Virus record (IMG/VR): IMGVR_UViG_3300020445_001222 | Span: 1 to 57,441 of that record | Origin: a virus | Taxonomy: Duplodnaviria > Caudoviricetes | Length of the DNA stretch: 57,441 nt | Direction: 5' to 3' (one strand) | Shown here: positions 9,616-53,719 of the stretch, piece by piece | Position numbering within the stretch: the stretch's first letter is position 1 | Layout of the letters: every line of letters begins with the position of its first letter | The notes under the pieces: model-generated | What the model was told of the DNA's origin: nothing | The model's database searches: none | What the model saw: only the letters and a program-made list of their open reading frames with translations | Made by a program: the position numbers and the translations under genes

Positions 9616-9815
9616 TGTTTAGTCAATTCAGTTAGTAGTTTCTTTATTTCACTTAATTCATTCTTTACGTCATCAAGTTCTTTCTTTTCTAGTATTCTTC
9701 TTTCCTTTTCAGAAACGTATTGTGAATACCCAAAAGTGTCCGTGTTTACAATAGCACCAGACTTTGCATCTCGATACAAATTCCGTTCATTTTCAACTCT
9801 AATCAAATCGGACAT
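9612..9815 (-). CDS. Conserved small hypothetical protein
   Basis: LYRDAKSGAIVN motif plus C-terminal coiled coil; coupled to upstream stop. Confidence 0.8.
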   Translation of the reverse strand: MSDLIRVENERNLYRDAKSGAIVNTDTFGYSQYVSEKERRILEKKELDDVKNELSEIKKLLTELTKH

Positions 9816-21500: not shown

Positions 21501-24500
21501 TAGTAAAACTAGTCGTTGTGTCAACAGTAACAGCAGTAGTTATTCCTGCAATTGGATCATGAGGACGAGGATAAGCATGAACAGTAGCAAAATTATCTCT
21601 TGCACATTTAAACTTAAGACTACCCTCATCAATAGTAATAGTATCGTTAGTGCTCATTCCATGTACACCAGCAAATATTAATCTTAATGCACCAGTTGCT
21701 GGATTATATTCTGCACCATTAGGTGTCTTCTGACTTCCTACCTCTGAACCACTTTGGACATTTAAAGTACCTGTAGTGGCAGAATCAAAGGTATGTGCAT
21801 ATTGTCCACCATAATGAATATTATTTGCTGTACTGGACCAGAACTTATGTTCGTTAGTTAGAACTTCTGCAGTTATATTTGCAGAATCTCCTGTATGTCC
21901 AGGTTCGTATACACTAATACCAATTGCTACTCTTCCATTATAACCAGATCCAAATGCTCTAGAAGTAGAATTGTAATATGGATATACAGTTCCAAATCCA
22001 ACATAAGTTTGATCGAATGTGGAGATTCCAATTTTTACTTTAATATTTGTGGAATCAACAATTTGAGTTATTGGGAATATATTACCTAATGTAGTATTTC
22101 CATATGTCGTAATACCCAATGCACTAGTAAACTTCATACCATCTATGAAGACATCTTGATTCTGTGCATTTAAATTATGAGCAGTTCCTGTGGTTATGTC
22201 TAATATTCCAGTTTGATAATCAAAAGAAGCAGTACTTATTGATTTTCCAGGTGTAGTATAAGTTGGAATACCAATTATTCCTGAAATAGAACCACCTGCA
22301 CCAATAACAGGTAATACATCAGCACCTAATAGAGGAGCAAATCCTAAACCAGTCGTAGAACCTAGAGAAATAATTAATCCACCTTTAGGGAAAGCATTTT
22401 GATTAGGATCCTCTAATGAAACTACAGGAGTACCATCAGTAGATGTTATACCTGTGAATACAATTTCAGAATTTGATCCAGATTCATTATAGTAGAAATT
22501 ATTTCCTGCATTATTATCTGTTGTTGGAGTTTGGAATATTCCATTTATTAATACTAAACCATTTCCAGTCTCTATACCAGTTGTACTAATTCCTGATTGT
22601 GTAACTGTAAATGTTTGGGCAATTCCTGTAAATTCGCTAGAAATATCATCATATATTAAATTATTTGTATAATCTTTTCTTAAGAAAACCCTTCCATTAA
22701 ATTCAGAGAATCCTTTAGGAAGATTACTTTCGTTAACAGTTAACAAACCACTTCCTTTTGGAGGTTCGCTAAAGAATATATTTTGTCCAGAGAAGTTATA
22801 AGAACCTCTATAAATTCTTGCTGCTGTTCCATCAGTATGTAATGTTGCTGCAGTACCAACATGACCTCTTACAACCTCAACAAGTTTTACATCACCATTG
22901 CTTATTGGCCCTATTGATGTTGTTCCTAAACCAACACCACCAACTTTCATAAATTCATTATCAACTTTTAGTATATCTCCATTACGTATAGAAGTAATAC
23001 CAGACATTGAGAATACTGTTGTTGCTGTTCCTATTTGACCACCATTTGCTTCTAAATCATAAACAATTGGTGTATATGAAAGTGGAGATTGTATTACATC
23101 ATCAATTGAAATTACTGCTTTCTCCAACTTTTTAACCATTTCAAATGAATGATAATTACCACTTCCTTCATCTATAAATGTTACTGCAATTCCAGCAGAT
23201 GCATATTCAGGTCTTGTAGCAATTTGGAATTTTTCATTATTAGTTCTAATTGCATAAACTTGATATGGTAGTTTGTTAGTTACAACACCAACTGAATCTG
23301 CAGTTAATCCAATACCAATAGAAGTAGATGTAAGACCAGATACTGATGATCCTGCTCTGTAAATCAATTCTTCTCCAGTTTCAAAGAAGTGATTGGTTAT
23401 TGAAAATTCGCCAGTTGTCTTGTTTAAAACTGCAGTATCTGCTGGATCCCAGAATTTTTGGAATATAGGAGTATCCTTATATTCCATTTTAAAGAATTTC
23501 TTATTAATTCTATCGCTATTAGTTGCATCAAATAAACCAATATTATATTCTTGCGTTTTTATAGAACCATAATTAATATTTTGATATGCATTTTCGGTCT
23601 CTAACTCTTGGTATAAAACTTCATTGAATGATTTAATAGTAACAATACCTGTTACAGAAGAGTCGGGATAGAATTTAAGTGCAACATCTGAACCATCAAT
23701 AATAGTACCAAATGTTCCTATTCCAGTTGTACTTCCTATTGATAAGAAAGGATATTGAGTAGAGTAGGTATTTGTACTATCAGGACTCAATGTTAATATT
23801 TGGTGTAATGCGTATGTTGAACCATAACTTACACTAACTAAAGATTTGATAGAATTAGTTAATGTTGAATCTGCACTAAAGATTGTAGTTTCTCCAGTAC
23901 CAACTACAGAATTACCTGAGAAATATGCACTTCTTTCATTACCATCTGGTTGAGATGTTCCTATCTTAAACCTTAAAGCACCATCAGCATTTGATGTAGC
24001 ACCAAATCCAACAGCATTTGCTCTAACAGTTACTGGAACGGTAAGTGGGTTTGTATAAGATAATGTAAGTTTTCCATTTGCTATAGAAGCATCAAAGTTT
24101 GAGAAATCATTTCCACTAAATCCTTGAGCTGAATCGGAATCAAAATAGTAATCACTTACATAAGTGTTAGTCCCATCATGATGAACATATAGTTCTGTAT
24201 AGTTTTGAGTATACAAATCATTTGCATTTAGATGTAAATGAACGTGCATAGCATCAAAGTTATCAGAACTATATTCAAGTATAGTATTAGTAGAACCAAC
24301 TCCTACAATGGCATTTGTAGACTGATTTTTTATTAAACCAATAGATGTAGATGCTAATCCAACTATGTTGCCATTAAATGTGTCTTTAACGAATTTAATA
24401 TCATAATCAATATTAAACACATCATATGGCGTAAATCTTAGAGATAGAATATCAAACTCATCAACATGTCCTGTTACATCAGCAAATTCCTGTTCAGTCC

Positions 24501-27500
24501 AACCATATTCATTAGTTGTTGTGTTTGCTACACCTGTATTTGATAGATATCCTTTCTTCAAAACAAATGCAGATTCAAATTGTGGATCATGGAGTACTAT
24601 AACTTCATGAATTGCATTTTGTAGTTCCGCAGCACCATTGCTTCTAACTTGAACCAAATATCTTGCAAAATCTTTTCCAGATTCATCTAGATCTATAAAG
24701 GTATCACTTACATTTTCTTTATTTGTAAATTGCTTACTTACATCATCTATTACAAGAACTCTATTTGTTTTACAAATAACACTATCAACAAAACTTTTAC
24801 CTCTAAATTGAAGGAATTTAGAAGAGTTCTGAGCATCTATTACCTCTGTATCAAAATCTCTTGCTTGAGCATATCCATATATTGTATCTACTCTGTTATC
24901 TTCAATAATATCAGCATATTGCAAAGATTGTACAGTTGTCATTCCAAAACTAACTGTAGTGTTAGTTGCTAATCCAACATCAACAAAGTTTTTCAATCCT
25001 GTAGTATGAACTAAACGATTAATTGCATCAATAGAATCTTTAAACAGAATAGGACTCTTAACTGAATATGATAGATTTTGATAGTAATCATTATCAGGTA
25101 GAACCTGTATATCATTATTAAGTTGTCCTGTATTCTTCTTCCAACCTCTGTTTGATCTTACAGAGAAGTCAATATCAAACTTACCATCACTCTTTATAAT
25201 CTTAGATATATCTCCCGTTGAACCAGACTGTACACCTCTAACAGAATCTCCAGATTTAACTTCATAGTTCCCAGAAGTTTTAATATAATCTGGTAAAACT
25301 GTAGTTACATTTAAATCTGTTGATTCTCCATTTACGAATAATTGCTCTCCATCTATAAATGAACTCTTTCCTTGAGTAACTTTAAATGTTGGATACTCGC
25401 TTCTTTTTACGATATTTGCAAATGATCCTTGAGTAGTATTTGCTAGACCTGGATTAGTAGTTAATCCTGCTACACTAAATTTAAGTTTTGCAGGGATAAA
25501 ATTCTCATATGAAATAACCTTAAAGAAATTAAATTGATAGTCTTCAGAGTTAAATCCACTACCCTCTGTACCAGATTTAGTTATTCCCTCTACAAATATT
25601 TCATCACCAACAGTAAAGATAGAAGTACTGAATCCAAGTAAAGGTGTAGTTAAGAAACATGTAACAATTCCACTGGTTGATGTTTGCATAGTGGATATAC
25701 CAACACCATTAGTATTATTGATAGCAAATAATGTCTTAGTATTAAAGTTGAGTCCTCTTGGTTGTTCAAAAATATTAACAGCAGAAATTGAACTTGATTG
25801 AACTTCTGTTGTTAATATACCATCATCAATTTTTTCTCCTGTTATTGAATCTACAATTGCAAGATTTGGTGGTGATGTATAATTATTTCCACCATTTAAT
25901 ATTTCTACATCTGTTATTGTTAAATTAGATCTTAATTCAAGTGTAGGTGCTACATTTGCTTCAGGTCTAAGTGTTTTATCTGAATTATACTCAAATGCTT
26001 GATCAATAACTCTTATTTCTTTTATACTACCTACAGTGTTAGATTGTGCAAATAATACAGCATCAGTACCATTTACAGTTGTAATACTAGAAATACCAGG
26101 TAATTGTTTATAATCATTACCCTCTGAAACCATTTGAACGTTAGCAATAGCACCAGAAGCAGTCTTTGAAGTAGTAGTATACTTCAAAGTTTCGGTATTA
26201 TCTGTAGTATAAAGTTCTAATTCTGGATCTTTAAGTAAAGATACAATAAACGAAGTTGAAGCTACACCAACAACTGAATATGTTCCATCATATTTACTAT
26301 CATTAAATGTAATTTGGTTATAATCAACAACTGTTGAATCTGCTGTAGATATAAATCCACCCTTTTCTACGTTATAGAACAATGGTTGTGTAGGATCTGG
26401 TACTACATCAATTAAAGAATCTGTGTAAGTTAGGGTAAATGAAGCAGTTGATGTTACACCAACAGTTCCTACACCAGAAGTTGAAAATGTTGTTGTATTT
26501 GCAACAGATACAAACTGATTTTGGAATGTTTGATCCGTATATAAATTAAACTTAAATCCCTGTAATGTAGAATCTGATAAATCAAATACAACATCATTAC
26601 CTCTAGTTGGATATAATCTTGGATTAATTGCTGAGAACTCTTGTTCTGCTCCTCCTGTAGACCCTATAGAAATAATTTTAGGAGGTGATGCAATAGCATC
26701 TTCATAAGTAAGACCAAGTTTAAATCTATTTTTATCAATCTTATAAACATAGAATAGACCAGGTTCCAATCCAGTTGCTACTTCATCTGTAGCATTATAA
26801 TAAATTTTTTCTCCAGTTATAAATGGATGGTTATTAAGTGTTATTACATTTTCTATAGTATCAATAGCAGTTGAAGTAAATCCTATAGGATCTATAACAA
26901 GTTTTTCTATATCAAAATTATACTTAACTCTGACTTTAGTGGATGTTCCAATACCAACACTTCTATCTGGTACAACTTTTAATGAAATTTTATCATTTGG
27001 TTGTAAATTATGTGCAGTTGATACAGATACTACTGCATCATTTTTCTGAACTACACATACAATTTGATTTTTAGTTGGTTCTAAAGAGTATTCATAATTA
27101 TCAGAACCATTACTATAGAAATATAAACCATTTGTTGATGTAGTTAATCCAATTTGAGTTACAATTCCAATGGAATCTTGAGATTTATTAATAACATATA
27201 AAGTTTCAGCAGTATCTCCAATATCAAATGTTGCAGATGACTCTGTATTTGCCACAGAAATGGAATTACCACCACCATTTTTTCTAAATGTTACTCTTTC
27301 TCCTGTTTTAAAAGAATGACTAGGTAAGTATATACTTTGTGTAGGTATAGAAATATCATAATTTTTATCCCCTAAAGGATATTCTACTGCAATACCAATA
27401 CCAGGTGTAGATCCAACACCAACAGATTCGGTTGGATTGAAGTATACCTTTTCATTTAATGAAGATTCAAAGAATGGAGAATCTACTGGAATTTTAATTG

Positions 27501-30500
27501 TATTAGTATAAACATACCCTACAACAGAAGTTGTATGTGCTGATCCAGTAATACCTCTCTTTGCCCTAATTATACTTTTATCTGCAAATATATTCAATAC
27601 CGATAATACTTCCGTACCAATTCCAATAGTAGATCCAATTGATAATATAGATGGTATATTAGACACATAGATGTCTGTCATAATACCAGAAGAACTATTA
27701 GCAGGTAAATCCCTATACAAATTAAAGGTTGCTGTAGATATAGCGACTTTTCTTAATCCAGAAATTTTATCAACAAATGTTGAAAGACCACTTATAGAAA
27801 TTATGTCATCTTTTTGGAAATCATGGAAAGGACTTATTTTAATGTCTATACTACCTTTGTCCCAAAGTAAAACAGATCCTGTATATTCTCTAAAGGATGA
27901 TGCTATAGAAGTTACTGATGCTCCATCAACTTTAACAACTCTTGCACTAGCACCACCACCATTAGTACCAGTATTATCAAAATTAATTAAATCGTCTACT
28001 TGATAATTTACTCCTGGATTTCTAATATCTACACTAGTTATAGATCCCTTAGTTGTAGATTCAACAGATGCTTCCTGATTAAACAAACTTTGAGATTCAA
28101 TAATAAAATCATTTCTTGATCCAGTTACACTTAATTGATGAGGGAAAGTATTTCTAACTATACCTGAAGAATTTAAATTAAAATCTTGATCTTTACTATC
28201 TAATTGATTCAGAGATCTAAATCTCTTACCAACAAAGTAAGGGAATTTGGGAGTAAAAGTACCATCAGTTGTTATACCTGCAAAGTAAGCATAAGTTCCA
28301 TTTGGATATTCTGGTGTTTTGCAGAATCTTGTATTATGTACATCTAAATCTCCAGTAGCATCATAAGTATAATCCTCAACAAAGAATCCATCTAAGAACC
28401 CACTAGGACGATCTACAACAGTAGATGAATCTAATTTATAACCAGTTTTTAATACTTGTATACCTGATGAACTATCAAGAGGATCTACAAATCCATAAGG
28501 ACCATATATTGGATGGCCATCATAAGCATATCCAATTATTGGAGAGTGTGTTGATCCTGTATCATTGAATTCTCCAGATGCTATTTCATTTGAATATGAA
28601 ATATTAACATATTCTAAACCCCTCTTAAGAGTAGGATGTAAATATTCAGATCCATATCTTACACCATCATTTAATGTTAAAGATCTAATTTTTGTAGAGA
28701 ATTTAGCATTTCTACCTGCAGGTGTAACACTAATACTAGTTTTTTCTTGGGTATAATTAGTTCCTTCCGAGATAACAACTACTTCAGTTATTTGCCCATT
28801 AACAATAACAGGACGAACGACTGCACCTGTTCCATTTCCATTTACTGCCAATTCAGGAATAGAGAAATATTCACTTCCTCTTGATCTAACATCGACTCTT
28901 ATTAATTTACCACCTACAACAACAGGATATAAAGATGCTCCCTTACCATTTTTAATGGTAACACCTGGAGATCTTTCAAAATTTAATGTAGTACTTCCAT
29001 AACCTGTACCAGTTTCATATAGATAAGAATCTATAATATTACCCCTAACATAAGGTGTTGCTGTGATAACCCCAGAGGTTCCAGAACCGTATGAAACATT
29101 AATGTTTAACTTTATATCTGGATACTTAAATTGGTGATATCCAGACCCAACAGAGTCTAGTTTAATATGAAGTCTGCTATCATAATTATCTGTAATAGTT
29201 CCACCAATACCAGCATCTGCAACTCTAAATTGATCTTTATTCTTTTCAAAGATATAATATTGGTTAGTAGTAACTAATCCAGATATAACAGTTCCTGTAT
29301 TTTGATATTCAACTAAATCTCCTTCTTTAAATCCATGATCTTTAAAATTAACGAGATGATCTATGGTTGAAATACCAACTGCTTTAACATTTAACTGTCT
29401 ATTTTGATAATTAGAACCACCTTCAATAACTTTAATTGATTTTAAAGTCTTCTTACCATTAAATGTTCTAAATCTATGAATACCAGAATTAGAAGTAGTA
29501 GTAAATCCAATTGTATTGATTCCTGCTTGGAAATCACTTTTAGAAAAATATAATCTAACTGTTTGTGAGTTTACAAATTCTGCGATATATTTTGTATTTT
29601 CAACTAAAAATCTATTCTGATCCGCATTAGAAGCAGCAAATGTTCCAATACCTAATGCAACATTACCTTCTGTTCGATATACAACTTCCTCTCCATCAGT
29701 AAAGTTATGATCCCCCAAAAATGTAATAGTTTCTGCATTTTCTCCTATACCACCACCAAATGTTAATAATCTAGCATCAAAACTAGCACTTAAAAACTTA
29801 TCTTCAACAACTGGTTCTAAAGCAACACCATCACCAGGACCTCCGCCAGTTATACTAACAGAAAGAACTTTATCCAACTCTCTTGTCTGAGGATCTACTA
29901 AGATTTTCTCAACAGATCCACTAAGAACAGGTGTTACTAGTGCTGTTGTTCCTGATCCAGTATTAGCAACTTCAATAAGTGGTGGATTTATAACATCATA
30001 TCCAGTTCCTGAATTTAATACATCCGCAGAAAGTAATGGCCCTGAATAAATCTTATCTTTAGACCTATAATTCTTAATTTCAACACCATTTACCATCATA
30101 CCAACAGTTTCAGTTGTGGTATCTGTCCCATCATTCTCTCTAGGTATTAATGGGAACTTTCTAAGAAGTTTTTGTGGTTGAATTTGCTTTTGATGTACGG
30201 ATTTTACAGTAAAAGTATGTTTACCACCAATTCCAACAAGTAAAGGTTCAAATTCAAGATTTAAATCCCCTTGAATAAAAGAGTTAGATGCATATAATTT
30301 AATCTGTTGCTTGTTAGATAATACTCTAACATAATATGATTTACCTGTATCTAATCCTGTGATTGCGGTAGTTTCTGGTTCATAAACAACTTCATCACCA
30401 GTTAAGAATGGGACCTCTGTAGGGAAATTAATAATAGAATATGCTAATTCTCCTACCTCTGTTTGTATAGCATTAGATTCAGTGTTTCCTGCACCAATAA

Positions 30501-32289
30501 AAGTTATACCAGTTCCAACCACTATAGATGGTGTTGAAGGTGTAGTATCTTGTCTAAAAGTGTATGATGGGAGAGAGTTAGATGCAACATACATAAACTC
30601 TTCGCCATAGAATCCATAATCTAGGTCTTCGCTATAAACGTTCTGTACGTCCGCAAAAAGGTCTGAATATTGTAGAGGTACAAATTGACTTGTAGTCTTT
30701 TTAGGAACCCTTCTGATGGCGTGTGGGATACTCTCATCAGTAGAGAATCCAACAAACTCTAAAGTTACTTGTTTAAGTGAAGAATCAATAGCAGTAACTT
30801 TAGCATTTTCTACTTCTACATTTTTAGTAATATCGTTTATAATATCAACACGATCATCTATTTTTAAAAATGCATTATCAATTGAAGATTTTAGGGTTAA
30901 TTGTTTTGTGCTTGTATTAATACCAGAACACTCAAAAGTAGAACTAGTATTATAAACCCATGAATTGGCAAATCTTTCTTTGTCTGTTCTATCGGAGGCA
31001 ATGCCTGGATTATTAATTATATCTCCTAATTCTTTAATTCTAATTTTTTCATTAGGTAATGCAAGACCTGCATCTTTTGCTAATTTTAAATCAGATATTA
31101 TTCCTGCTACTCTTAAATTAACTGGTTTTGTAACATCTCCATTCTCATAACCAAATATAATATCATCTGATCTAATATCATCAGTTGCTGTAATAGGATT
31201 ATCAATACCAGAACAATTTAAAAATTGATTTAGAGTCTTATCAGTATATGTTATGGTGTTAATGCCACTTATAATAGTACCAGATCCATTAAATCCAACA
31301 GTAGAATCAACAGTAATTACAGAAGATCCAGCTGAAACATTAGTTATTGATTTTGTATTTGGAGTTACTTGAAACTCCCCTTCTATAAGATCCTTATTAC
31401 TGTAACCAATGAATAATGATAACTTATAATAAGTCTTATTGTTTCTAGTTACTATTTCAATTTCAGATATTGCTGCTTTTGTTCTAGGATTAGACTTGCT
31501 ATAAATTGTCTGCCCTACTAATTGATTTACGTCTCCTGTTATTTTTTCTACTAAAACAACTTCTCTTCTGATGTATTCAGCATCAGATGGTTTTAACAAA
31601 TACTTTTCTAAGTCGATAACAGAAGGTGTTACTCCAAAAAGAACTTTATAGAGTATTCTAAATGATTCTTCTGTACCTTTTGCTTGATAAAATGACCTTG
31701 CTTCCTTTATAAAATTACCAGCATCTAATTCTGGAACAAAATTTACATCTTCTAACCCAGGTGCAAGAGAGTATTTTACTTTTTTATAAAACTCTTTTAA
31801 AAATAAAGAACTTAAATTTTGTACTGGAGATTCATTATCATGATTTGCACTAGTTGAAGTATTAAATACTAACTCTTCTGAATCAAGAATATTATGATAT
31901 GATGTTATACCACTAAAACCACGAACACATCCTGTAAATGTATTAGTAGTTAAACCAGTGTATGTAATTATCTCATCATCTATCTTTAAAAGACCATACT
32001 CATTAGGAAATCCTCTTGTACTTTCAACACTTACAGTCTTACCTATTGAGGTTACAGATGCAGTAAGGGAAGTAACACCTACAACAACCTGTGGTGTTAA
32101 TTGGTCAAGACTTAAATATTGATCAAGATTATCAACTAAATCGACAGGACCTCCCTGATACTCCTGAGAACGGTAGTATTGTTGAAATAACTCTACTGTC
32201 TTAGGACTTTGATCTAAAATATACTCAGGTAATTGTCCCTCTATCAGTTGATGAACCTTTACTCTCGATTCGATACCAGTTTGTATCAT
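18517..32289 (-). CDS. gp7: Baseplate wedge initiator, giant (4590 aa)
   Basis: FYQAKGTEESFRILYKVLFG; HSPIIGYAYDGHPIYGPYG; DNDYYQNLSYSVKS; lies between gp6 and gp8. Confidence 0.88.
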   Translation of the reverse strand: MIQTGIESRVKVHQLIEGQLPEYILDQSPKTVELFQQYYRSQEYQGGPVDLVDNLDQYLSLDQLTPQVVVGVTSLTASVTSIGKTVSVESTRGFPNEYGLLKIDDEIITYTGLTTNTFTGCVRGFSGITSYHNILDSEELVFNTSTSANHDNESPVQNLSSLFLKEFYKKVKYSLAPGLEDVNFVPELDAGNFIKEARSFYQAKGTEESFRILYKVLFGVTPSVIDLEKYLLKPSDAEYIRREVVLVEKITGDVNQLVGQTIYSKSNPRTKAAISEIEIVTRNNKTYYKLSLFIGYSNKDLIEGEFQVTPNTKSITNVSAGSSVITVDSTVGFNGSGTIISGINTITYTDKTLNQFLNCSGIDNPITATDDIRSDDIIFGYENGDVTKPVNLRVAGIISDLKLAKDAGLALPNEKIRIKELGDIINNPGIASDRTDKERFANSWVYNTSSTFECSGINTSTKQLTLKSSIDNAFLKIDDRVDIINDITKNVEVENAKVTAIDSSLKQVTLEFVGFSTDESIPHAIRRVPKKTTSQFVPLQYSDLFADVQNVYSEDLDYGFYGEEFMYVASNSLPSYTFRQDTTPSTPSIVVGTGITFIGAGNTESNAIQTEVGELAYSIINFPTEVPFLTGDEVVYEPETTAITGLDTGKSYYVRVLSNKQQIKLYASNSFIQGDLNLEFEPLLVGIGGKHTFTVKSVHQKQIQPQKLLRKFPLIPRENDGTDTTTETVGMMVNGVEIKNYRSKDKIYSGPLLSADVLNSGTGYDVINPPLIEVANTGSGTTALVTPVLSGSVEKILVDPQTRELDKVLSVSITGGGPGDGVALEPVVEDKFLSASFDARLLTFGGGIGENAETITFLGDHNFTDGEEVVYRTEGNVALGIGTFAASNADQNRFLVENTKYIAEFVNSQTVRLYFSKSDFQAGINTIGFTTTSNSGIHRFRTFNGKKTLKSIKVIEGGSNYQNRQLNVKAVGISTIDHLVNFKDHGFKEGDLVEYQNTGTVISGLVTTNQYYIFEKNKDQFRVADAGIGGTITDNYDSRLHIKLDSVGSGYHQFKYPDIKLNINVSYGSGTSGVITATPYVRGNIIDSYLYETGTGYGSTTLNFERSPGVTIKNGKGASLYPVVVGGKLIRVDVRSRGSEYFSIPELAVNGNGTGAVVRPVIVNGQITEVVVISEGTNYTQEKTSISVTPAGRNAKFSTKIRSLTLNDGVRYGSEYLHPTLKRGLEYVNISYSNEIASGEFNDTGSTHSPIIGYAYDGHPIYGPYGFVDPLDSSSGIQVLKTGYKLDSSTVVDRPSGFLDGFFVEDYTYDATGDLDVHNTRFCKTPEYPNGTYAYFAGITTDGTFTPKFPYFVGKRFRSLNQLDSKDQDFNLNSSGIVRNTFPHQLSVTGSRNDFIIESQSLFNQEASVESTTKGSITSVDIRNPGVNYQVDDLINFDNTGTNGGGASARVVKVDGASVTSIASSFREYTGSVLLWDKGSIDIKISPFHDFQKDDIISISGLSTFVDKISGLRKVAISTATFNLYRDLPANSSSGIMTDIYVSNIPSILSIGSTIGIGTEVLSVLNIFADKSIIRAKRGITGSAHTTSVVGYVYTNTIKIPVDSPFFESSLNEKVYFNPTESVGVGSTPGIGIAVEYPLGDKNYDISIPTQSIYLPSHSFKTGERVTFRKNGGGNSISVANTESSATFDIGDTAETLYVINKSQDSIGIVTQIGLTTSTNGLYFYSNGSDNYEYSLEPTKNQIVCVVQKNDAVVSVSTAHNLQPNDKISLKVVPDRSVGIGTSTKVRVKYNFDIEKLVIDPIGFTSTAIDTIENVITLNNHPFITGEKIYYNATDEVATGLEPGLFYVYKIDKNRFKLGLTYEDAIASPPKIISIGSTGGAEQEFSAINPRLYPTRGNDVVFDLSDSTLQGFKFNLYTDQTFQNQFVSVANTTTFSTSGVGTVGVTSTASFTLTYTDSLIDVVPDPTQPLFYNVEKGGFISTADSTVVDYNQITFNDSKYDGTYSVVGVASTSFIVSLLKDPELELYTTDNTETLKYTTTSKTASGAIANVQMVSEGNDYKQLPGISSITTVNGTDAVLFAQSNTVGSIKEIRVIDQAFEYNSDKTLRPEANVAPTLELRSNLTITDVEILNGGNNYTSPPNLAIVDSITGEKIDDGILTTEVQSSSISAVNIFEQPRGLNFNTKTLFAINNTNGVGISTMQTSTSGIVTCFLTTPLLGFSTSIFTVGDEIFVEGITKSGTEGSGFNSEDYQFNFFKVISYENFIPAKLKFSVAGLTTNPGLANTTQGSFANIVKRSEYPTFKVTQGKSSFIDGEQLFVNGESTDLNVTTVLPDYIKTSGNYEVKSGDSVRGVQSGSTGDISKIIKSDGKFDIDFSVRSNRGWKKNTGQLNNDIQVLPDNDYYQNLSYSVKSPILFKDSIDAINRLVHTTGLKNFVDVGLATNTTVSFGMTTVQSLQYADIIEDNRVDTIYGYAQARDFDTEVIDAQNSSKFLQFRGKSFVDSVICKTNRVLVIDDVSKQFTNKENVSDTFIDLDESGKDFARYLVQVRSNGAAELQNAIHEVIVLHDPQFESAFVLKKGYLSNTGVANTTTNEYGWTEQEFADVTGHVDEFDILSLRFTPYDVFNIDYDIKFVKDTFNGNIVGLASTSIGLIKNQSTNAIVGVGSTNTILEYSSDNFDAMHVHLHLNANDLYTQNYTELYVHHDGTNTYVSDYYFDSDSAQGFSGNDFSNFDASIANGKLTLSYTNPLTVPVTVRANAVGFGATSNADGALRFKIGTSQPDGNERSAYFSGNSVVGTGETTIFSADSTLTNSIKSLVSVSYGSTYALHQILTLSPDSTNTYSTQYPFLSIGSTTGIGTFGTIIDGSDVALKFYPDSSVTGIVTIKSFNEVLYQELETENAYQNINYGSIKTQEYNIGLFDATNSDRINKKFFKMEYKDTPIFQKFWDPADTAVLNKTTGEFSITNHFFETGEELIYRAGSSVSGLTSTSIGIGLTADSVGVVTNKLPYQVYAIRTNNEKFQIATRPEYASAGIAVTFIDEGSGNYHSFEMVKKLEKAVISIDDVIQSPLSYTPIVYDLEANGGQIGTATTVFSMSGITSIRNGDILKVDNEFMKVGGVGLGTTSIGPISNGDVKLVEVVRGHVGTAATLHTDGTAARIYRGSYNFSGQNIFFSEPPKGSGLLTVNESNLPKGFSEFNGRVFLRKDYTNNLIYDDISSEFTGIAQTFTVTQSGISTTGIETGNGLVLINGIFQTPTTDNNAGNNFYYNESGSNSEIVFTGITSTDGTPVVSLEDPNQNAFPKGGLIISLGSTTGLGFAPLLGADVLPVIGAGGSISGIIGIPTYTTPGKSISTASFDYQTGILDITTGTAHNLNAQNQDVFIDGMKFTSALGITTYGNTTLGNIFPITQIVDSTNIKVKIGISTFDQTYVGFGTVYPYYNSTSRAFGSGYNGRVAIGISVYEPGHTGDSANITAEVLTNEHKFWSSTANNIHYGGQYAHTFDSATTGTLNVQSGSEVGSQKTPNGAEYNPATGALRLIFAGVHGMSTNDTITIDEGSLKFKCARDNFATVHAYPRPHDPIAGITTAVTVDTTTSFTINVGRSLNSSVSISTASYEPSTGDLVLNVGAGHGFIAAGILTTNTASYNPSTGLLTVNTTTNHGMVTGERVQLANESFTFKCAKDNNLTEHYYPREDDPSSAKWLAITKVDADSFTVFVGESSDTSTHTFVRAELANIRTDDPGGSVGIHTRSLTFTCAQDNHGSFHAYPRASDPIYGAVLGIGATTTDTITINAGTSVNGTGGQLKFTIVDGGTGYVNPDVLVDEPTYTDLDITGVSRRGIGQTSETGINELINLKVGSNTNPIFGNRFADAADLIEANKEFIADVSVGEMLDVYPSFTVAGGSQNCKDDVIDVLESVSFNLRFGGNDETWDAANLYITGAHVAGEEQESIFVFHAARDLANKVINNVAIAKSDYTTRDQVFDLTITADPVVGFNTDANGCANVRSSVNSFIGIVTSAIGFGTVTSKKSFAPAKFFEVSDFSVKGAGYSFQLGDVFAPVGLVTAKGLKKPIKPFELEVVDVFSDRFASWQFGQLDFIDPISTLQDGVRSVFPLFYNAELVSFQKDATDNDSTLIDIDAVLLIFINGILQEPKKAYIFDGGSSVQFIEAPKPEDHVSIFFYNGTRLIDSVETDVPETVKVGDILSVRKAAGIDTSVNQSEGRTIYDVSSSDKIETNIYSDVGIDEFNDRNVNWTKQKRDIFINGRLVSKARDSIEGMVFPTSRIIRDVNVGDTDILVDNGQFFNYEENESSVVTAYVDAVVLDDINIVSAAATVGVDALGRVDTSTIDITNVGSGYTTATVDIKFSAPKFIGVGIGTTAIGTATITNGSVASISVTNVGLGYTNSLNTPVPPQIIIPQPRLIKEEVTNIQSVQGNTGIITGISTVAGIGTDLAIKFFTNNTLDLQVGYHIVVTDTAVGSGVTSIYTHDNDIIGVGTEFADNVYRVHQIPVANEIVCNIKSDTVTTGIQTLGTSIYNPNGYYSWGRLTNLVRNSEPIAIGISGRTVTAGLSTYPLIQRRGYGLRDNGAIRKTLPD

Positions 32290-32291
32290 AT

Positions 32292-34190
32292 TTATCCTCT
32301 TTTTAGCTCTCCGTTGCTATAACTAGATGTTACTTTAAATCCAACGCCAGAAATCTTCTCACCTGAAGATATTGTGTCTTTAACCATATTTATCGTACTT
32401 TTTGAAACATCAAACTCAAGATATAAATCTTTTAATCCAACTACATCATTGGATTCTGGGAATGCTTGAATTTCAATGACATCATCTGCTACAACAGTAC
32501 TTGTAATTAGAGTCGTTGATAAAATAACTTCTCCTTTTTCATAATCAACAACACCTGCAGATTTTATAACAACTCTATTTTCTCCAGTTTCTTCGATTGG
32601 TTTAACAATTGAAAGAACACCTTTCTTTTTGTCTGGGTTTGGAATATCTGTCAAATAAACAACGTCTGATTCGTTAACAATCTTAAATCCACTACTTTTT
32701 ATGTTAAATCCTGCAGGATTTACATGGAATTTGTTACCAAAACACAATTCATACTGTGCTTCTTGATTTATAAGTGCTCTTAAATTTCTTCTGACTATAA
32801 CTCTAGTAATATTAGAGGTTATAGAGCGATCTACATCATCAACTACATTCAAAATCTTACTATATTTAAATCTACCACCAAATTTACTCAATTCTACTGA
32901 ATCTGAGTAAGATTGGAGAGCATTTACAACATTTGTTTTTAGATTATTAACATTTGTAACTTGAGATGAGTTATAATAGACTGAAGAATCCACTTCAACA
33001 TAAAGAATTTTAATATCAACAAGTTTTTGGTTGATTCCTGTTAATGAATAACTCTTTAATTTACTTAAAATAAAATCTTTATCAAAATCAGACACAAAAT
33101 CGCCATTTTTTGGTTTAATACTGATTTTAACAGTACCAAATTCAGGTGGATCTAACTCTTCACCACCTACAACTGAGATAGATTCGGTGTTTGGGTAGAT
33201 GTTTTGTATAATTGCCTCATAATCTCTTGCTGTAACTGCTCTAAATTGTGCAGCATACAGTCTTGGAGCAAAATATTTAACAGATTCTATTGGTTCTATG
33301 TCTGTTCCACTTGTACTTTTTGTAAGTGTGGTTAATTTTGCTGTTGTTACAGTAACAGGATTGTTTAAATTGTCTTTAAATGTACCTGAAAAAGAGAAAT
33401 TAGCAGCACCATTACCTCCTGATCCATCTGTAACTATGTAAGAAATGAATATTTCTGTACCATTTTCCAATTTTTTACCAAAAATACCATCACCAAAGAG
33501 TAATTCATACTTTTCATCTTGTACTTCTTGAATTAAATATATCTCTGAATCGCTATCAATGCCAATAATGTTGTCTACGAGAGAATATTCTCTCCCAGGA
33601 CCAGTTTCTCCATCACCTCTTACCGTAACAACGATGGTTTGTATGTCTATAAATGAGTTATCAAGTAAAAAACGTTGATCTAAACTACCATCAACCTTAA
33701 ATTTCTTCCTTAAAAGCGATCCCTGATACACTAAAACTGGATTTTCAATGGTTCCAAACTGTGCTTTACCATTTACTACTGATGTAGTAATAGTTTCTGG
33801 TATTGAAAATATATAAGAACTATCATTTGTTGCACCAACACACACAGGTCCTCTTGCTTCAAGTGTTATTGATGGTAAACTTGTAGAACATTCTACATCT
33901 AATAGTATACTTGCCCTAGAAGCTGTTCTAGAACGAGGAACATATCCTATTCCTCTTGCTAAAGAGACAACATTTTCCCTTAAAGTTGCAGAATCTAAGA
34001 AAGATTCATTAACAATCATATTCGCATTAAACGAATTTATGTAAGTATTATATGCTAAAGTGTTTAAAAGAACCGAAAAGTTGGATCCTTCAAAATCAAA
34101 ATCAGTAAAAGTAGAGTTTGCTCTCAGATAATCTTTTAACTGGGTCTTGATTTGATCAAAATCTAAGTTTGTAAATTTAGTAAAAGGCAT
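32292..34190 (-). CDS. gp6: Baseplate wedge subunit
   Basis: LDFDQIK, DFDFEGSN, ESFLDSATLRENVVSLA, RAVTARDYE motifs. Confidence 0.95.
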   Translation of the reverse strand: MPFTKFTNLDFDQIKTQLKDYLRANSTFTDFDFEGSNFSVLLNTLAYNTYINSFNANMIVNESFLDSATLRENVVSLARGIGYVPRSRTASRASILLDVECSTSLPSITLEARGPVCVGATNDSSYIFSIPETITTSVVNGKAQFGTIENPVLVYQGSLLRKKFKVDGSLDQRFLLDNSFIDIQTIVVTVRGDGETGPGREYSLVDNIIGIDSDSEIYLIQEVQDEKYELLFGDGIFGKKLENGTEIFISYIVTDGSGGNGAANFSFSGTFKDNLNNPVTVTTAKLTTLTKSTSGTDIEPIESVKYFAPRLYAAQFRAVTARDYEAIIQNIYPNTESISVVGGEELDPPEFGTVKISIKPKNGDFVSDFDKDFILSKLKSYSLTGINQKLVDIKILYVEVDSSVYYNSSQVTNVNNLKTNVVNALQSYSDSVELSKFGGRFKYSKILNVVDDVDRSITSNITRVIVRRNLRALINQEAQYELCFGNKFHVNPAGFNIKSSGFKIVNESDVVYLTDIPNPDKKKGVLSIVKPIEETGENRVVIKSAGVVDYEKGEVILSTTLITSTVVADDVIEIQAFPESNDVVGLKDLYLEFDVSKSTINMVKDTISSGEKISGVGFKVTSSYSNGELKRG

Positions 34191-38080: not shown

Positions 38081-38485
38081 TTATTTGAATTGGTTGCTGG
38101 TTGCCAATTTTGAAGGAAGTTCGACCAACTGCTGAACTTTTGGTTTTGCCTGTTCTACAAGTTGAAGAGCGTGGGGTCTTACAAGGTTGAATCCTTTTAC
38201 AAGATCAGAAACCAGTGCATTGATTTCATACTCATGAATTGCCCATCTTTGCTTTACATCTTGAAGATAGCGTTGGGGGGTAATCAGTCCTCTTGCACTT
38301 GGGCGTTTTGGTGCTTTGGGTGCTGCTGATTTTTTGGAGACTTTCTTCAGAGGTGTTTTGTTTGCCTCTGGTAGATTTACCGTAACACCCCCTGAGAGTT
38401 CAACGGTTTGTCTCTTTACTGCTGTTGCCTTTGGTTTGCGAGTTCTGGTCTTGCGTACCGTAGGTGCTTTAGCAGATGCTGTCAT
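38081..38485 (-). CDS. Basic hypothetical protein with K/R/A/P-rich N-terminus
   Basis: 134 aa, bounded by two repeat elements. Confidence 0.75.
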   Translation of the reverse strand: MTASAKAPTVRKTRTRKPKATAVKRQTVELSGGVTVNLPEANKTPLKKVSKKSAAPKAPKRPSARGLITPQRYLQDVKQRWAIHEYEINALVSDLVKGFNLVRPHALQLVEQAKPKVQQLVELPSKLATSNQFK

Positions 38486-38595
38486 AGGAATTGATTCCGA
38501 TGTTTACTTTTATATTATAGACATTAAAAAACCCCTTTAGGGGGTTTAGTGTGCAGTTTGGTAACTGTCTTTAAAAATCATTGAGGATTGATGAT

Positions 38596-38799
38596 TTACG
38601 CATCCTCAACTGTGTTCCAGACGGAGATGAATTCGCTGATCCACAACGCTTGACGTTCTGGGAGTAATCCAAGGTCTTGCTCATCAGCACTGCATGCTGG
38701 AAGGTTGTGTTTTTTGCAGTAGTCTGAATAGACGTCACAGAGGAAGGCGATTGCATCATACTGGTTGTTTGGGATTTGAAAAGGGTTGTTTGTTGCCAT
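38596..38799 (-). CDS. Hypothetical early protein
   Basis: 67 aa; ATG only a few nt after the -10 box, possibly leaderless. Confidence 0.7.
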   Translation of the reverse strand: MATNNPFQIPNNQYDAIAFLCDVYSDYCKKHNLPACSADEQDLGLLPERQALWISEFISVWNTVEDA

Positions 38800-38860
38800 G
38801 TCTGTATTATAAGCAAAAAAGAGACCCCTGTTAAGGGGTCTTGTACCACTTATTCAATTG

Positions 38861-38971
38861 TCATAGAACTGTGCCTTCTTCGGATACTTCAACAATATCC
38901 TCAAGAACTGCAAGGATTTCATTTCCATTGTCAGCGTTGTCAAGAAGGAATTCTGCGAATGCTTGTGACAT
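38861..38971 (-). CDS. Small acidic peptide (36 aa)
   Basis: MSQAFAEFLLDNADNGNEILAVLEDIVEVSEEGTVL; stop at edge of palindrome. Confidence 0.6.
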   Translation of the reverse strand: MSQAFAEFLLDNADNGNEILAVLEDIVEVSEEGTVL

Positions 38972-38996
38972 GATAATAGGAGTGTCGGTTTACAAG

Positions 38997-39189
38997 GTGG
39001 GACTTACAGGACGTAATTTCTCTGCTGAACAGAGACAACCATAGATCCTTGCCCTGAAAAAATGATGTGGGACTTACATCTTCAAAACTCGCAATGAGTA
39101 CAAGAGGTTCGTCTTAAAGAGATTTCCACAGCGTCACCAAAAATGGAATTACTGAATTGGTTCTCACCCGTGCCTTGCGTTTGCCCACA
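38997..39189 (-). ncRNA. Candidate two-domain structured RNA / long 5' leader
   Basis: Starts at predicted TSS; GTGGG...CCCAC closing stem; two units each GGGCAA...TGTAAGTCCCAC. Confidence 0.55.
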
Positions 39190-39238
39190 ATGTTATTATA
39201 CAAGTTTTAAGGGGACTTGTAACCCCAATTGTGCCAGT

Positions 39239-39367
39239 TTAAGAAATGTCCTCCTGTAGTCTGAAGGTTGAACGTGGTCTGATACAATCTACAATGAGAT
39301 GATACTCATCTCTGTCCTCGTAGATTTTAAGTAGTGCTTCATACACTTTAGGATCAAGCGGTTGCAT
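39239..39367 (-). CDS. Small hypothetical protein (42 aa)
   Basis: MQPLDPKVYEALLKIYEDRDEY...; stop inside palindrome. Confidence 0.5.
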   Translation of the reverse strand: MQPLDPKVYEALLKIYEDRDEYHLIVDCIRPRSTFRLQEDIS

Positions 39368-39626
39368 AAGACCTCCCGAATCTTTCTGCGTAGTATGAGA
39401 TGTTAACATAGTCCCTCTTCAGAGTACAGATTTGGACGATTTCCGCCAATGCCAACCAATGGTCTGATGAATAGACATCTGGATTGCCCCATTCAGAAAC
39501 TGCTATTTCATTTTCAATATCGAAAGATCCATTCTCTAAAGCGGGACAACTCATAAGAGTTCCATCTTCAGATATCCAGAATCCCATTCCAAATGAGTGG
39601 GAGAAAACGATTTCAGGTTTTGGCAT
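39354..39626 (-). CDS. Hypothetical early protein
   Basis: 90 aa; GGAGG RBS; promoter upstream. Confidence 0.75.
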   Translation of the reverse strand: MPKPEIVFSHSFGMGFWISEDGTLMSCPALENGSFDIENEIAVSEWGNPDVYSSDHWLALAEIVQICTLKRDYVNISYYAERFGRSYATA

Positions 39627-39690
39627 TTACCTCCGTGTGTATGGTCTTATTATAACCCCCACCAGTAGCAGTGGGGGAAAAAGTGGACAG

Positions 39691-40611
39691 TTATGCAACT
39701 GGTACAAATCGTCCACTGTTGAAGTTCGCATATGAGAAAATATGCCTATAAACTAATTTGTGCATCCCGTACTGATTAGTCTTTACAAACCCTTCACCTA
39801 TATGCTTATCATATCCTAGGTATGCCTGAACAGAATCATTATGGGTCAACCTACTCATGACCTCCCCTTTAATCGATTGTACTAATTGCCAGTACTTCAT
39901 TAACCCTGCATGGATCCCGTAATTTTTGGGATCCACTTCTCTACCTTCCCTATAATCTTTATTTATTTTTTTCTTTAACTCCTTCGCCGTTTTCTCATCT
40001 ACAAACTGGACCCCCTTCGCCATGTACCTGACAAAGTCAATTGACTTTTCCAACTCACTAATCGGTTCTCTTTCTCTGACCTCAGTGCCAACAAACAGAC
40101 ACTCATCCTGCTTTTCCCAATTATAAAAATAGGGAAACGACTTCATAGGGTGTGCTTCGGCATTTGCAAGATTGCCTTCACACTGCGTGGTAATGTACTG
40201 GGTATGTGGTGCAATTATTATTTTCTGCTCTACCACGTCGGGGAATTTATAGGTAAGGGTATTGGGTTTATATTCGTCAGAACCCCCGAACCCTATGAAG
40301 TCACCTTGAAAAACCATGTAACCTAAGCGGTGTGGTATGTGGTCTAAACACGCATGGAGAATTCTTGCAACTTCTCCACTGTGATTTGCGTCTATGTCCT
40401 CGTGTGAGTAATTGATCTTGATTTTGATCTTATTAAAGACGCTTTTAGTTCCCACAAAGAATTTGTGAGTTTTGGGATGATTGCCCCATACCACGGCGGG
40501 TGCACCATCATATTTCAATGAGGTATGCCCACCCCCTGTGAACCAATCCAACACGGATAAATCCCCTGTTAGGATTGTATCTTCGGGATGCTCTAGGTGT
40601 GTGTTTTTCAT
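39691..40611 (-). CDS. Ligase-like covalent nucleotidyltransferase-fold protein
   Basis: MKNTHLEHPED start; motif I KYDG, FQGDF, EGFV and KLV in ligase order. Confidence 0.75.
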   Translation of the reverse strand: MKNTHLEHPEDTILTGDLSVLDWFTGGGHTSLKYDGAPAVVWGNHPKTHKFFVGTKSVFNKIKIKINYSHEDIDANHSGEVARILHACLDHIPHRLGYMVFQGDFIGFGGSDEYKPNTLTYKFPDVVEQKIIIAPHTQYITTQCEGNLANAEAHPMKSFPYFYNWEKQDECLFVGTEVREREPISELEKSIDFVRYMAKGVQFVDEKTAKELKKKINKDYREGREVDPKNYGIHAGLMKYWQLVQSIKGEVMSRLTHNDSVQAYLGYDKHIGEGFVKTNQYGMHKLVYRHIFSYANFNSGRFVPVA

Positions 40612-53322: not shown

Positions 53323-53719
53323 AAAATACCTCTAATCCAACTGGTTCTCCGAAACTATAATCATAAGTTAATGCATCATGACAAACATAATGCGGATGAT
53401 CGGATTCTACACCCAATCTCTTACACAATTCAAGATGATTATCCTCCATAAGTTCTACTGCATACAACATATTGTTTAATATGTGTTCCTCATCATGATA
53501 CTGCAGTAATATATTTTTAAGAGTAACTAAAAAGTTACCACTACCTGCTGAATTATCTATGAAAGTAGAATTGGGGTTCTTTTTTATATCATCTGGTATA
53601 TCATTTATTATTCTAACACAAATATCCATAGGTGTAAACACTTCGCTAGTAGCGTTTATCCTATCATCCGATCTCTCAATTGCAGATCCTACACTTTTAT
53701 TATGGTCGTTTCTCTTCAT
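53315..53719 (-). CDS. Stand-alone SAM-binding half of an N6-adenine DNA methyltransferase
   Basis: EVFTP (motif X), FIDNSAGSGNFL (motif I), LYAVEL (II), DAL (III); no NPPY. Confidence 0.85.
   Translation of the reverse strand: MKRNDHNKSVGSAIERSDDRINATSEVFTPMDICVRIINDIPDDIKKNPNSTFIDNSAGSGNFLVTLKNILLQYHDEEHILNNMLYAVELMEDNHLELCKRLGVESDHPHYVCHDALTYDYSFGEPVGLEVFYD

Follow-up and report, generated by a model that had tools for sequence, protein, structure and literature searches.

Positions 38,997 to 39,189 of a viral DNA of 57,441 nucleotides (nt), the whole of which we call the window, carry two compact RNA modules, here named domain A and domain B, that read on the minus strand. From the base changes seen among their copies in other phages, it is highly probable that both are conserved structured RNA modules of a new family. 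Their shared closing element places them in a superfamily of modules, so far undescribed and restricted to phages, that have this base in common. On balance, we read the stretch that holds them as the ~220-nt non-coding leader of a small early gene. On the minus strand, the feature runs from a promoter through domain A, a U6 spacer, domain B, and an open reading frame (ORF) of 36 amino acids (aa) to a terminator. The parts that bear directly on the RNA modules are as follows.

39195..39223, minus strand: putative sigma-70-type early promoter, GTTACA-17-TATAAT, 10 of 12 consensus positions, by consensus match only
39067..39188, minus strand: domain A, a 122-nt multi-helix RNA module, 23 distinct copies with covariation
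39057..39066, minus strand: single-stranded spacer AUCAUUUUUU, read from sequence, with the U6 run at 39062-39057
38999..39054, minus strand: domain B, a 56-nt motif, covariance model R1, 91.5 bits, E = 5e-25
39067..39078, minus strand: first copy of the 12-mer UGUAAGUCCCAC, the 3' strand of the domain A base
38997..39008, minus strand: second copy of the 12-mer UGUAAGUCCCAC, the 3' strand of the domain B base

Domain B is a three-helix motif with compensatory changes

A blastn search of 50,697 phage records gave nine matching records, eight of which matched the window at 38997-39060 only (87.7-98.2% identity), with the flanks unmatched. In P-SSM2 (NC_006883 55972-56041) and P-SSM5, domain B falls in unannotated intergenic DNA. 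An 18-mer from its 5' half occurs exactly in 82 IMG/VR stretches and an independent pattern from its 3' half in 93, and ~100 uncultured marine phage contigs carry copies with unrelated flanks. The first 88 copies collected amounted to 21 sequence variants.

Two stems, AGGAU/GUCCU and UCUCUG/CAGAGA, had been claimed for this domain in an earlier note on the same DNA, and both are found. P1 (GGG/CCC) pairs 39054-39052 with 39001-38999 and is followed by CA. P2 (AGGAU/GUCCU) pairs 39049-39045 with 39012-39008 and leads into the joining segment J2/3, CUAUGGUUG. P3 (UCUCUG/CAGAGA) pairs 39035-39030 with 39024-39019 around the loop UUCAG, with AAUUAC as J3/2 and GUAAGU as a 3' bulge. Across copies, the motif is 54-56 nt long and has three helices, with the consensus P1 (3-4 base pairs [bp])/CA/P2 (5 bp)/9-nt J2/3/P3 (6 bp, UUCAG)/6-nt J3/2/P2'/NUAAGU/P1'.

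Pairing was present in 95.3% of cells across 48 distinct copies, and two-sided changes occurred in 6 of 15 pairs (55 cells, against 14.7 +/- 5.3 in shuffled data). In 500 shuffles, the covariation score of the real alignment was never attained, and pairing fell to 40-55% when the partner columns were slid. RNAalifold independently predicted the same helices. Compensatory changes are present in all three: P1 occurs as GGG/CCC, AGG/CCU, UUGG/CCAA, and GAGAGG/CCUCUC; P2 as GGAU/GUCC and GGGU/GCCC; and P3 as UCUCUG/CAGAGA, UCUCAA/UUGAGA, UCUGGA/UUCAGA, and UCUUUA/UAAGGA. U17-G50 is a wobble pair in every copy, and G-U pairs occur often; read on the opposite strand, these would be A-C mismatches, so that the folded strand is the gene-sense strand. 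A long form of domain B carries an additional 39 nt in the P3 apex, which indicates that this apex is dispensable. A pseudoknot with the P3 loop was considered and rejected, as the loop variants UUCAG/UCCAG covaried with no core position (judged by eye).

The covariance model R1, built from domain B, was run on the window and on named phage records. The window holds one copy at 91.5 bits, with the next best match at 11.3 bits (E = 0.72). A single copy each is present in P-SSM2 and P-SSM5 and in three large IMG/VR records, of which one is 100% complete. Neither an exact 20-mer nor a degenerate pattern specifying 20 bases had a match in 185,579 prokaryote species genomes, and a host origin of domain B was rejected on this result. 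The model and pattern searches therefore describe domain B as phage restricted and usually single copy, in a subset of cyanomyoviruses.

Domain A is a larger module with variable hairpins

In domain A, P1 pairs GUGGG at the start (39188-39184) with CCCAC at the end (39071-39067); the claim that GTGGG/CCCAC closes this domain is thereby confirmed, on the minus strand. G39188 is the 7th base past the -10 hexamer. The domain contains the shared base GGCA...UGUAAGUCC, a conserved core, and two variable hairpins. A 23-mer from the core occurred in 28 IMG/VR stretches, from which we obtained 23 distinct full copies of 122-150 nt. In these copies, 99.2% of cells were paired, and 0 of 500 shuffles reached the covariation score. 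Covariation was seen in P1, in helices 5 and 6 (one covarying pair each), and in a helix ACU-S...S-AGU. The P1 variants are GUGGG/CCCAC, GAGG/CCUC, GAGAGG/CCUCUC, CUGGG/CCCAG, CCUAGG/CCUAGG, and UUGGGG/CCCCAA. The ACU-S...S-AGU helix has G-C in 15 copies and C-G in 8, and it carries four unrelated apices of 7-35 nt. Three inner helices are only predicted because they never vary. Homolog collection and a covariation analysis against shuffled alignments, checks of the kind that had been proposed, gave compensatory changes in both domains.

A U-tract had also been placed after domain A, and a U6 run does stand at 39062-39057. The terminator scan calls no site at 39057-39071, so domain A and its U-tract were rejected as an intrinsic terminator; the minus-strand sites called within 38400-39700 are 38841-38822, 38837-38825, 38547-38529, and 39267-39250.

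Some 50 nt upstream of domain A, a hairpin, GGUAGUUUC-AGGAUUAGGGGCGAUA-GGAAACUACC, is conserved in L023, L030, L042, L083, and L118 (L-numbers are labels of related loci; L001 is P-SSM2 and L131 is S-PM2). It is missing in the window, where the promoter abuts domain A.

One closing base joins the two domains and many other hairpins

The 12-mer GTGGGACTTACA had been reported at 38997 and 39067, and it occurs in the window exactly there, 70 nt apart. It would be expected 0.26 times, and at least two matches turned up in 2 of 100 shuffles; taken by itself, the repeat is therefore no more than mildly unusual. What domains A and B have in common is limited to the closing helix and 5'-GGCA / UGUAAGUCC-3'. 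In general form, the shared base is NN-GGCR...UAAGUCC-N'N', a short covarying helix with the internal loop GGCR/UAAGUCC.

This base occurs predominantly in one orientation. Across 103 oriented loci (912,869 nt), GTAAGTCC was found 120 times in sense and 14 times in antisense, and TAAGTCCCAC 26 times and once. With A and B masked, a GGCR partner (counted when 18-74 nt upstream of the TAAGTCC site) with at least two outward pairs accompanied 21 of 47 distinct sense TAAGTCC sites, versus 1 of 52 antisense sites. The base closes at least 10 further unrelated small hairpins, 31-74 nt from GGCR to UAAGUCC, and some of these covary in P1. One example is GGCGUACAUCAAYGAUUCGCUCUUAUUGUUR-UAAGUCC in L121 (2282-2327), L043, and L072. 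Others lie at L125/L001, L016/L069, and L054/L118, and some recur in several contigs; P-SSM2 has at least one hairpin of this kind, UUGGCAUUAAGC...UAUGUAAGUCCAA. Because the base closes at least 10 unrelated apices, the pattern of a conserved base and a variable apex is real and general. This agrees with the earlier note, which had seen an unrecognized RNA motif of that build, as do the covariation, the lack of a match in Rfam 15, and the sense-only base.

The modules differ in order and number between loci. The 70 nt between the 12-mers, that is, the spacer and domain B, are exactly missing in L042, L003, and L125, which have domain A without B. Domain A precedes B in the window, L023, L030, L083, and L120, and B precedes A in L055. 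In L114 and L119, domain A stands straight after a promoter. U-rich spacers resembling AUCAUUUUUU are present in L023, L030, and L083. The description of the stretch as tandem domains is thus right about the shared base, but A and B are different modules that also occur singly or in reverse order, and their own apices are highly conserved.

A further conserved block, GAGGAGAUGGAUGUGCCUCUCGGUUCGCAACCGAAGAAAGAACUAACAUCC, follows A or B in P-SSM2 (L001 1440-1495), L002, L055, L107, L108, L118, and L121. Translated, it gives a mini-ORF, MDVPLGSQPKKELTS, with a frame that is lost beyond 15 codons, and it is also foldable (GGAUGU...ACAUCC, CGGUU-CGC-AACCG). The block could be either a leader peptide or one more RNA module.

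Genomic context and coding potential

The promoter that had been noted upstream of the stretch is present, with TATAAT at 39200-39195 and GTTACA 17 nt upstream of it (10 of 12 consensus positions). Promoter-like sites around the locus number 6, against 2.5 +/- 1.8 in shuffles. Across 79 distinct domain B contexts, an exact TATAAT ends 10-24 nt upstream of the motif in 22, and a same-strand ATG ORF of at least 25 aa, from many different families, lies within 210 nt downstream in 66. The distance from domain B to the start codon is 10-433 nt.

Three ORFs of at least 30 aa touch the stretch, at 38940-39038 (minus strand, TTG start, 32 aa), 38841-39044 (plus strand, 67 aa), and 39143-39259 (plus strand, 38 aa); none is backed by comparison with related loci, and a mini-ORF in domain B is interrupted in L098 and in the long form. 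The statement that ~190 nt here lack a credible ORF stands. A long antisense ORF crosses domain B in none of the 79 contexts. In nine contexts, a stop-free sense stretch of at least 450 nt includes domain B, and each of these is the frame of the downstream ORF remaining open through the motif. A protein-coding gene across the stretch was rejected on the domain A alignment, which has 1-2-nt indels and apices of 7-35 nt, and on P3 changes that are compensatory, not synonymous. A conserved translated ORF, which had been named as the finding that would speak against an RNA element, was not found.

In several phages, early transcripts often begin with GGGAAACAAAAC, which pairs with a downstream GUUUUUGUUUCUC(UCACC) (L009, L012, L020, L026, L050, and others). 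This long-range GGGAAACAAAAC/GUUUUUGUUUCUC helix encloses domain B in some phages; in P-SSM2 (L001 1575-1715) it encloses a different insert, and B comes after the helix.

Comparison with known RNA classes

A comparison with Rfam had been suggested, and it gave no match: none of the 4227 models in Rfam 15 reached its gathering score anywhere in the window. At E up to 10, the region 38700-39500 gave only twister-P3 (23.4 bits against 39.9) and STnc50 (17.3 against 55), neither of them on A or B. At E up to 1, eight related loci (25,567 nt) gave only DUF805 (26.1 bits against a gathering score of 51.1), elsewhere in L009. The twister-P3 ribozyme (RF03154; E = 0.036, 39186-39233, minus strand) was rejected, its P3 being 6 nt instead of 32. 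The match covers the terminator hairpin GGGGUUACAAGUCCCC and, on either side of the promoter, the palindromic flanks CACAAUUG/CAUUGUG; it lies upstream of where transcription is predicted to begin. As a separate observation, the terminator hairpin has a loop and 3' arm (ACAAGUCCCC) similar to the shared base UAAGUCCC.

No gene for a tRNA or tmRNA was detected by ARAGORN, either in the window or in 60 related loci, and the arrangement of domain B is linear (stem, loop, stem, loop, hairpin), with no cloverleaf. A type III antitoxin RNA (ToxI-like) was also rejected: TRF reported no arrays in 38700-39400, only the 12-mer is shared, and no toxin family (Pfam, E up to 0.01) was matched among 17 window ORFs including the neighbors. 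An antitoxin-mimic function, one of the roles proposed earlier, thus appears unlikely, given the lack of tandem repeats and of a toxin-family match. A full-text literature search returned no account of these motifs, and the sequence strings gave only two unrelated primer matches.

A proposed cis-acting leader and alternative explanations

We lean toward a reading in which the modules form a cis-acting leader. Host RNA polymerase would start at the sigma-70-type promoter, and the first transcribed nucleotides would form the closing helix of the first module, giving a base-paired 5' end followed by compact folded domains. The modules would then influence in cis what becomes of the early transcript, shielding it from 5'-end-dependent decay. 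A nuclease or a binding protein would find a defined site of action in the shared base, and A and B might be released in this way as stable small RNAs. This specific mechanism, cis stability or processing, is put forward more tentatively than the cis-acting leader as a whole. The analysis shows directly how the sequence is laid out, that the structure is conserved and covaries, which strand folds, that domain B is single copy, that the modules are confined to phages and are shuffled, and that they occur in contigs from RNA libraries; we infer the start of transcription, any effect on stability or processing, and any protein partner of the modules.

The conservation, the folded strand, the shared base, the promoter context, and the modularity described above fit a leader, and two further observations do so as well. 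When predicted transcripts were folded from the 7th base past TATAAT, the minimum-energy fold left at most 3 unpaired 5' nt in 18 of 21, versus 436 of 1011 control TATAAT sites, although the 21 cases are not independent (12 have one common leader) and many of the controls are probably not promoters. Contigs from all four of four marine RNA-library runs (4 studies) contain 39001-39052 with differing flanks, and three of the four contain parts of domain A; a small share of sampled words was found in 20 of 24 listed sequencing runs. These contigs fit transcription in many phage backgrounds, but they show neither strand nor ends, and contaminating DNA is possible. None of the contigs from the four runs spans 38800-38884, 39184-39260, or the spacer with both modules, which is not readable as absent transcription.

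Several findings weigh against a simple stabilizing leader. Not all copies stand behind promoters: domain A in L112 and L113 sits between a stop codon and a terminator, and the long-form domain B in L021, L053, and L060 follows an ORF. A general mRNA stabilizer would be expected on many early transcripts, whereas domain B is single copy in five of five large phage records and has no significant match in the cyanomyovirus isolates P-TIM68, P-SSM4, P-TIM40, S-SSM7, and S-PM2 (best E = 0.238). The unpaired segments CUAUGGUUG, AAUUAC, and UAAGU of domain B are near-invariant; this stems partly from how copies were collected, but even those gathered via the 3' half have no more than five 5'-half variants. 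Unpaired nucleotides that do not vary are not what simple end protection would call for; they suggest that a specific protein or ligand is involved, or that the element acts in trans. Folding energy is also unremarkable (z = -1.53 for domain B, -0.11 for domain A, and -0.40 for the whole stretch); the case for more than chance lies in conservation and covariation across ~100 related phage loci, not in folding energy.

The single-copy state of domain B, its invariant loops, and the non-promoter copies keep trans-acting and factor-binding readings in play. It is conceivable, though unlikely, that A and B are cut from the leader as small RNAs or decoys that pair with host RNAs or bind a protein of host or phage, with the shared base as a handle for processing and stability. 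This would account for a domain B that is single copy in large phages, invariant in its loop nucleotides, and positioned independently of the identity of the downstream gene. The domain A copies between stop codon and terminator also resemble a 3'-end-derived small RNA, and the corresponding variable region of S-PM2 holds a tRNA cluster. However, in the window neither A nor B is followed by a terminator or by a defined 3' end, no target or protein partner was found, and the RNA-library contigs are unable to show processed ends. Processive antitermination, as by the put RNA of phage HK022, would have a nascent module bind host RNA polymerase and read through early terminators. Modules that lie just downstream of early promoters and are co-oriented with a long, terminator-punctuated gene run would suit this, as would the single copy of domain B in five of five large phage records, its independence of the downstream gene, and very strong loop conservation of the kind expected for contact with a conserved host enzyme. 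We nevertheless regard it as distinctly improbable: read-through is needless where each downstream gene of the window has its own promoter, and some copies do not lie near a promoter. Alternatively, the modules could be DNA-level recombination cassettes like the promoter/stem-loop (PeSL) elements of T4-type phages, with the 12-mer and base as joints for homologous recombination and a functionless RNA. In relatives, the 70-nt segment between the 12-mers is either complete or exactly missing, module order varies, and the region is one of variable small genes, each with a promoter and terminator. Set against this are compensatory changes that keep the helices in A and B, an invariant G-U wobble and a sense-only base (21/47 versus 1/52) that point to a folded single strand of one polarity, and covariation of P1 outside the conserved block, which a pure joint does not need; we consider such cassettes improbable.

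A riboswitch aptamer, in which the two invariant internal loops of domain B would form a binding pocket controlling the downstream ORF, seems decidedly improbable as well. The compact core of conserved internal loops, an apex made dispensable by the 39-nt P3 insert, and a position in 5' untranslated regions would all agree with it, and the cyanophage orphan motifs manA and wcaG likewise precede diverse genes, according to the sections covered of PMC2864571. But the genes downstream come from many small, mutually unrelated families without an assigned function, the start codon lies 10-433 nt from the motif with no conserved expression platform seen, and no Rfam riboswitch matches; the riboswitch was rejected as a class on these grounds. 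Still less probable is a new class of self-cleaving ribozyme that processes the leader by cleavage at the shared base (UAAGU). A conserved base flanking variable apices, invariant unpaired nucleotides, and the weak twister-P3-like match adjoining domain A could be taken in its favor. That match, however, is at 23.4 bits against 39.9 and lies on the terminator hairpin and promoter, not on A or B; hammerhead, hairpin, pistol, hatchet, twister-sister, and HDV gave no match at E up to 10; and hairpins of 31-45 nt with the shared base seem too simple for a catalytic core. A short leader peptide in domain B (AAGGA-N3-AUG GUU GUC UCU GUU CAG CAG AGA AAU UAC GUC CUG UAA, 12 codons) is scarcely credible. 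The variable base before UAA is synonymous, since CUG, CUU, and CUC all encode Leu, but an in-frame stop occurs at codon 7 in L098 and at codon 12 in the long form, most P3 changes alter the amino acid yet keep the pairing, and the Shine-Dalgarno-like AAGGA is paired in P2.

Beyond the cis-acting leader, we can imagine that the shared base is the handle of a new RNA-processing or RNA-binding activity, or a catalytic centre, with which cyanophages mount exchangeable apical "payload" domains (A, B, and at least 10 others) on early transcripts, with the loops of B binding and taking over a conserved host factor early in infection. This is a speculative idea in which we place little confidence; if true, it would describe a modular cassette system for phage non-coding RNAs.

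Setting of the window and neighboring genes

The window is an entire viral record with a completeness estimate of 27%, and coding is nearly all on the minus strand. Pfam and PHROGs matches include a gp6-like baseplate protein, 2OG-Fe(II) oxygenases, a tryptophan halogenase, and several cyanophage families with no assigned function. The nearest DNA matches are the Prochlorococcus phages P-SSM2 and P-SSM5 and marine viruses from single amplified cells. By these matches and its gene content, the window is therefore part of a T4-like cyanomyovirus genome. Around the modules, this genome is variable and made up of small genes that each have a promoter and a terminator of their own. The remaining parts of the cassette are as follows.

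39211..39226, minus strand: end hairpin of the upstream gene, GGGG-UUACAAGU-CCCC, read from sequence, closing the ORF 39409-39239
38861..38971, minus strand: 36-aa acidic ORF (MSQAFAEFLLDNADNGNEILAVLEDIVEV...), starting 27 nt past domain B
38822..38841, minus strand: intrinsic-terminator-like hairpin and U-tract closing the cassette, from the terminator scan

The hairpin at 39226-39211, which the terminator scan does not call, overlaps the -35 hexamer and so makes a composite terminator/promoter. Homologs of the 36-aa ORF were found by tblastn in 23 of 102 element-bearing loci, on the same strand in all. The next promoter follows directly after the cassette terminator, at 38834-38806.

Guesses at a protein partner from neighboring genes were rejected for both candidates, DUF7717 (synteny only) and DUF6267 (no more than 12 of 102 loci have it within 6 kb of B). 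The DUF7717 gene is single copy and lies ~1.2 kb or less from domain B in four of five large phage records and 13 kb from it in the fifth; in the window the distance is 3.4 kb. It occurs in 149 phage records, versus 9 for domain B. This wider distribution and the varying distance indicate that proximity reflects shared synteny and no specific link. In S-PM2 (L131, NC_006820 17030-17693), a tRNA cluster (Ile, Met, Leu) comes right after the DUF7717 (T4-like gene cluster 68) gene, whose annotated coding sequence overlaps the first tRNA; the corresponding variable region holds RNA modules in P-SSM2-like phages.

Elsewhere in the window, two giant minus-strand ORFs of 4590 aa (18517-32289) and 2363 aa (9815-16906) lie upstream of the gp6-like baseplate gene (32292-34190). 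A 1039-aa ORF (53716-56835, minus strand) has a ResIII helicase-like domain and a weak Eco57I methylase match (E = 6.9e-4, under the Pfam cut-off), and it may be a fused restriction-modification-like or anti-defence gene. The 306-aa DUF6267/phrog_455 protein (39691-40611, minus strand, E = 1.8e-74) contains LKYDGAP, which we take to resemble motif I (KxDG) of ATP-dependent ligases.

Significance and relation to known systems

Cyanomyoviruses kill a large share of ocean Prochlorococcus and Synechococcus, and the control of their early gene expression is poorly understood. The analysis adds two covariation-supported RNA families that are phage restricted and absent from Rfam, and a closing motif that links a wider set of modules. 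As domain B is present in the cultured phages P-SSM2 and P-SSM5, these RNAs are directly testable. Should the base prove to be a processing or binding handle, it would represent a new layer of post-transcriptional control in marine phages and a portable RNA part. Even if it is no handle, well-supported orphan motifs are gained, and RNA structures, not just genes, are seen to be shuffled as cassettes.

Stem-loops at the 5' end stabilize bacterial and phage mRNAs, and RNase III processing hairpins are found in T7 early mRNA. Like these, the present modules are structured elements of early phage transcripts, placed between cistrons or at, or close to, the 5' end, and they are irregular hairpins with an asymmetric internal loop that are independent of the downstream gene. 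They differ from the T7 RNase III hairpins in that P1 of A and B is only 3-6 bp, short for RNase III, and from 5' stabilizer stem-loops in that their apices have invariant loops that a stabilizer does not need and domain B is single copy. The stable RNAs C and D in the tRNA region of T4 are small and have no assigned function. They, too, are small phage RNAs among small early or middle genes, and the S-PM2 region syntenic with the modules, after DUF7717, is a tRNA cluster. In contrast to the surroundings of RNAs C and D, which we compare by description only, the window and 60 related loci have no tRNA genes.

The PeSL cassettes of T4-type phages are thought to be DNA recombination substrates (PMC2839356, PMC4122927, as given in the portions covered). 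The resemblance, drawn from descriptions only, consists of variable T4-like regions of small ORFs that each have an early promoter and a terminator hairpin, and short conserved non-coding sequences at the joints of modular insertions and deletions. With its overlap of the -35 hexamer, the hairpin at 39226-39211 gives a PeSL-like arrangement. Domains A and B, in contrast to such promoter-terminator composites, lie downstream of the promoter as modules of a leader that is predicted to be transcribed; their helices covary, and they have a polarity. The available portions of the 2014 PeSL paper (PMC4122927) do not mention cyano, Prochlorococcus, or Synechococcus, and those of Steglich et al. 2008 (PMC2518516) mention cyanophages only with regard to ORF homologs. 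Fremin et al. 2023 predicted 10,006 unnamed candidate structured RNAs from IMG/VR (PMC10690425, in the extracts covered), and the A and B motifs may be among these candidates.

Close parallels are the cyanophage-associated motifs manA, wcaG, and PhotoRC-II, described by Weinberg et al. 2010 (PMC2864571, in the sections covered). These are likewise backed by covariation, are found nearly only in marine metagenomes and cyanomyoviruses, and usually lie in 5' untranslated regions, with manA preceding diverse genes. All three are in Rfam, whereas A and B match none of them there. The present set also differs in kind, as here two modules and many small hairpins have one closing motif and are shuffled as units.

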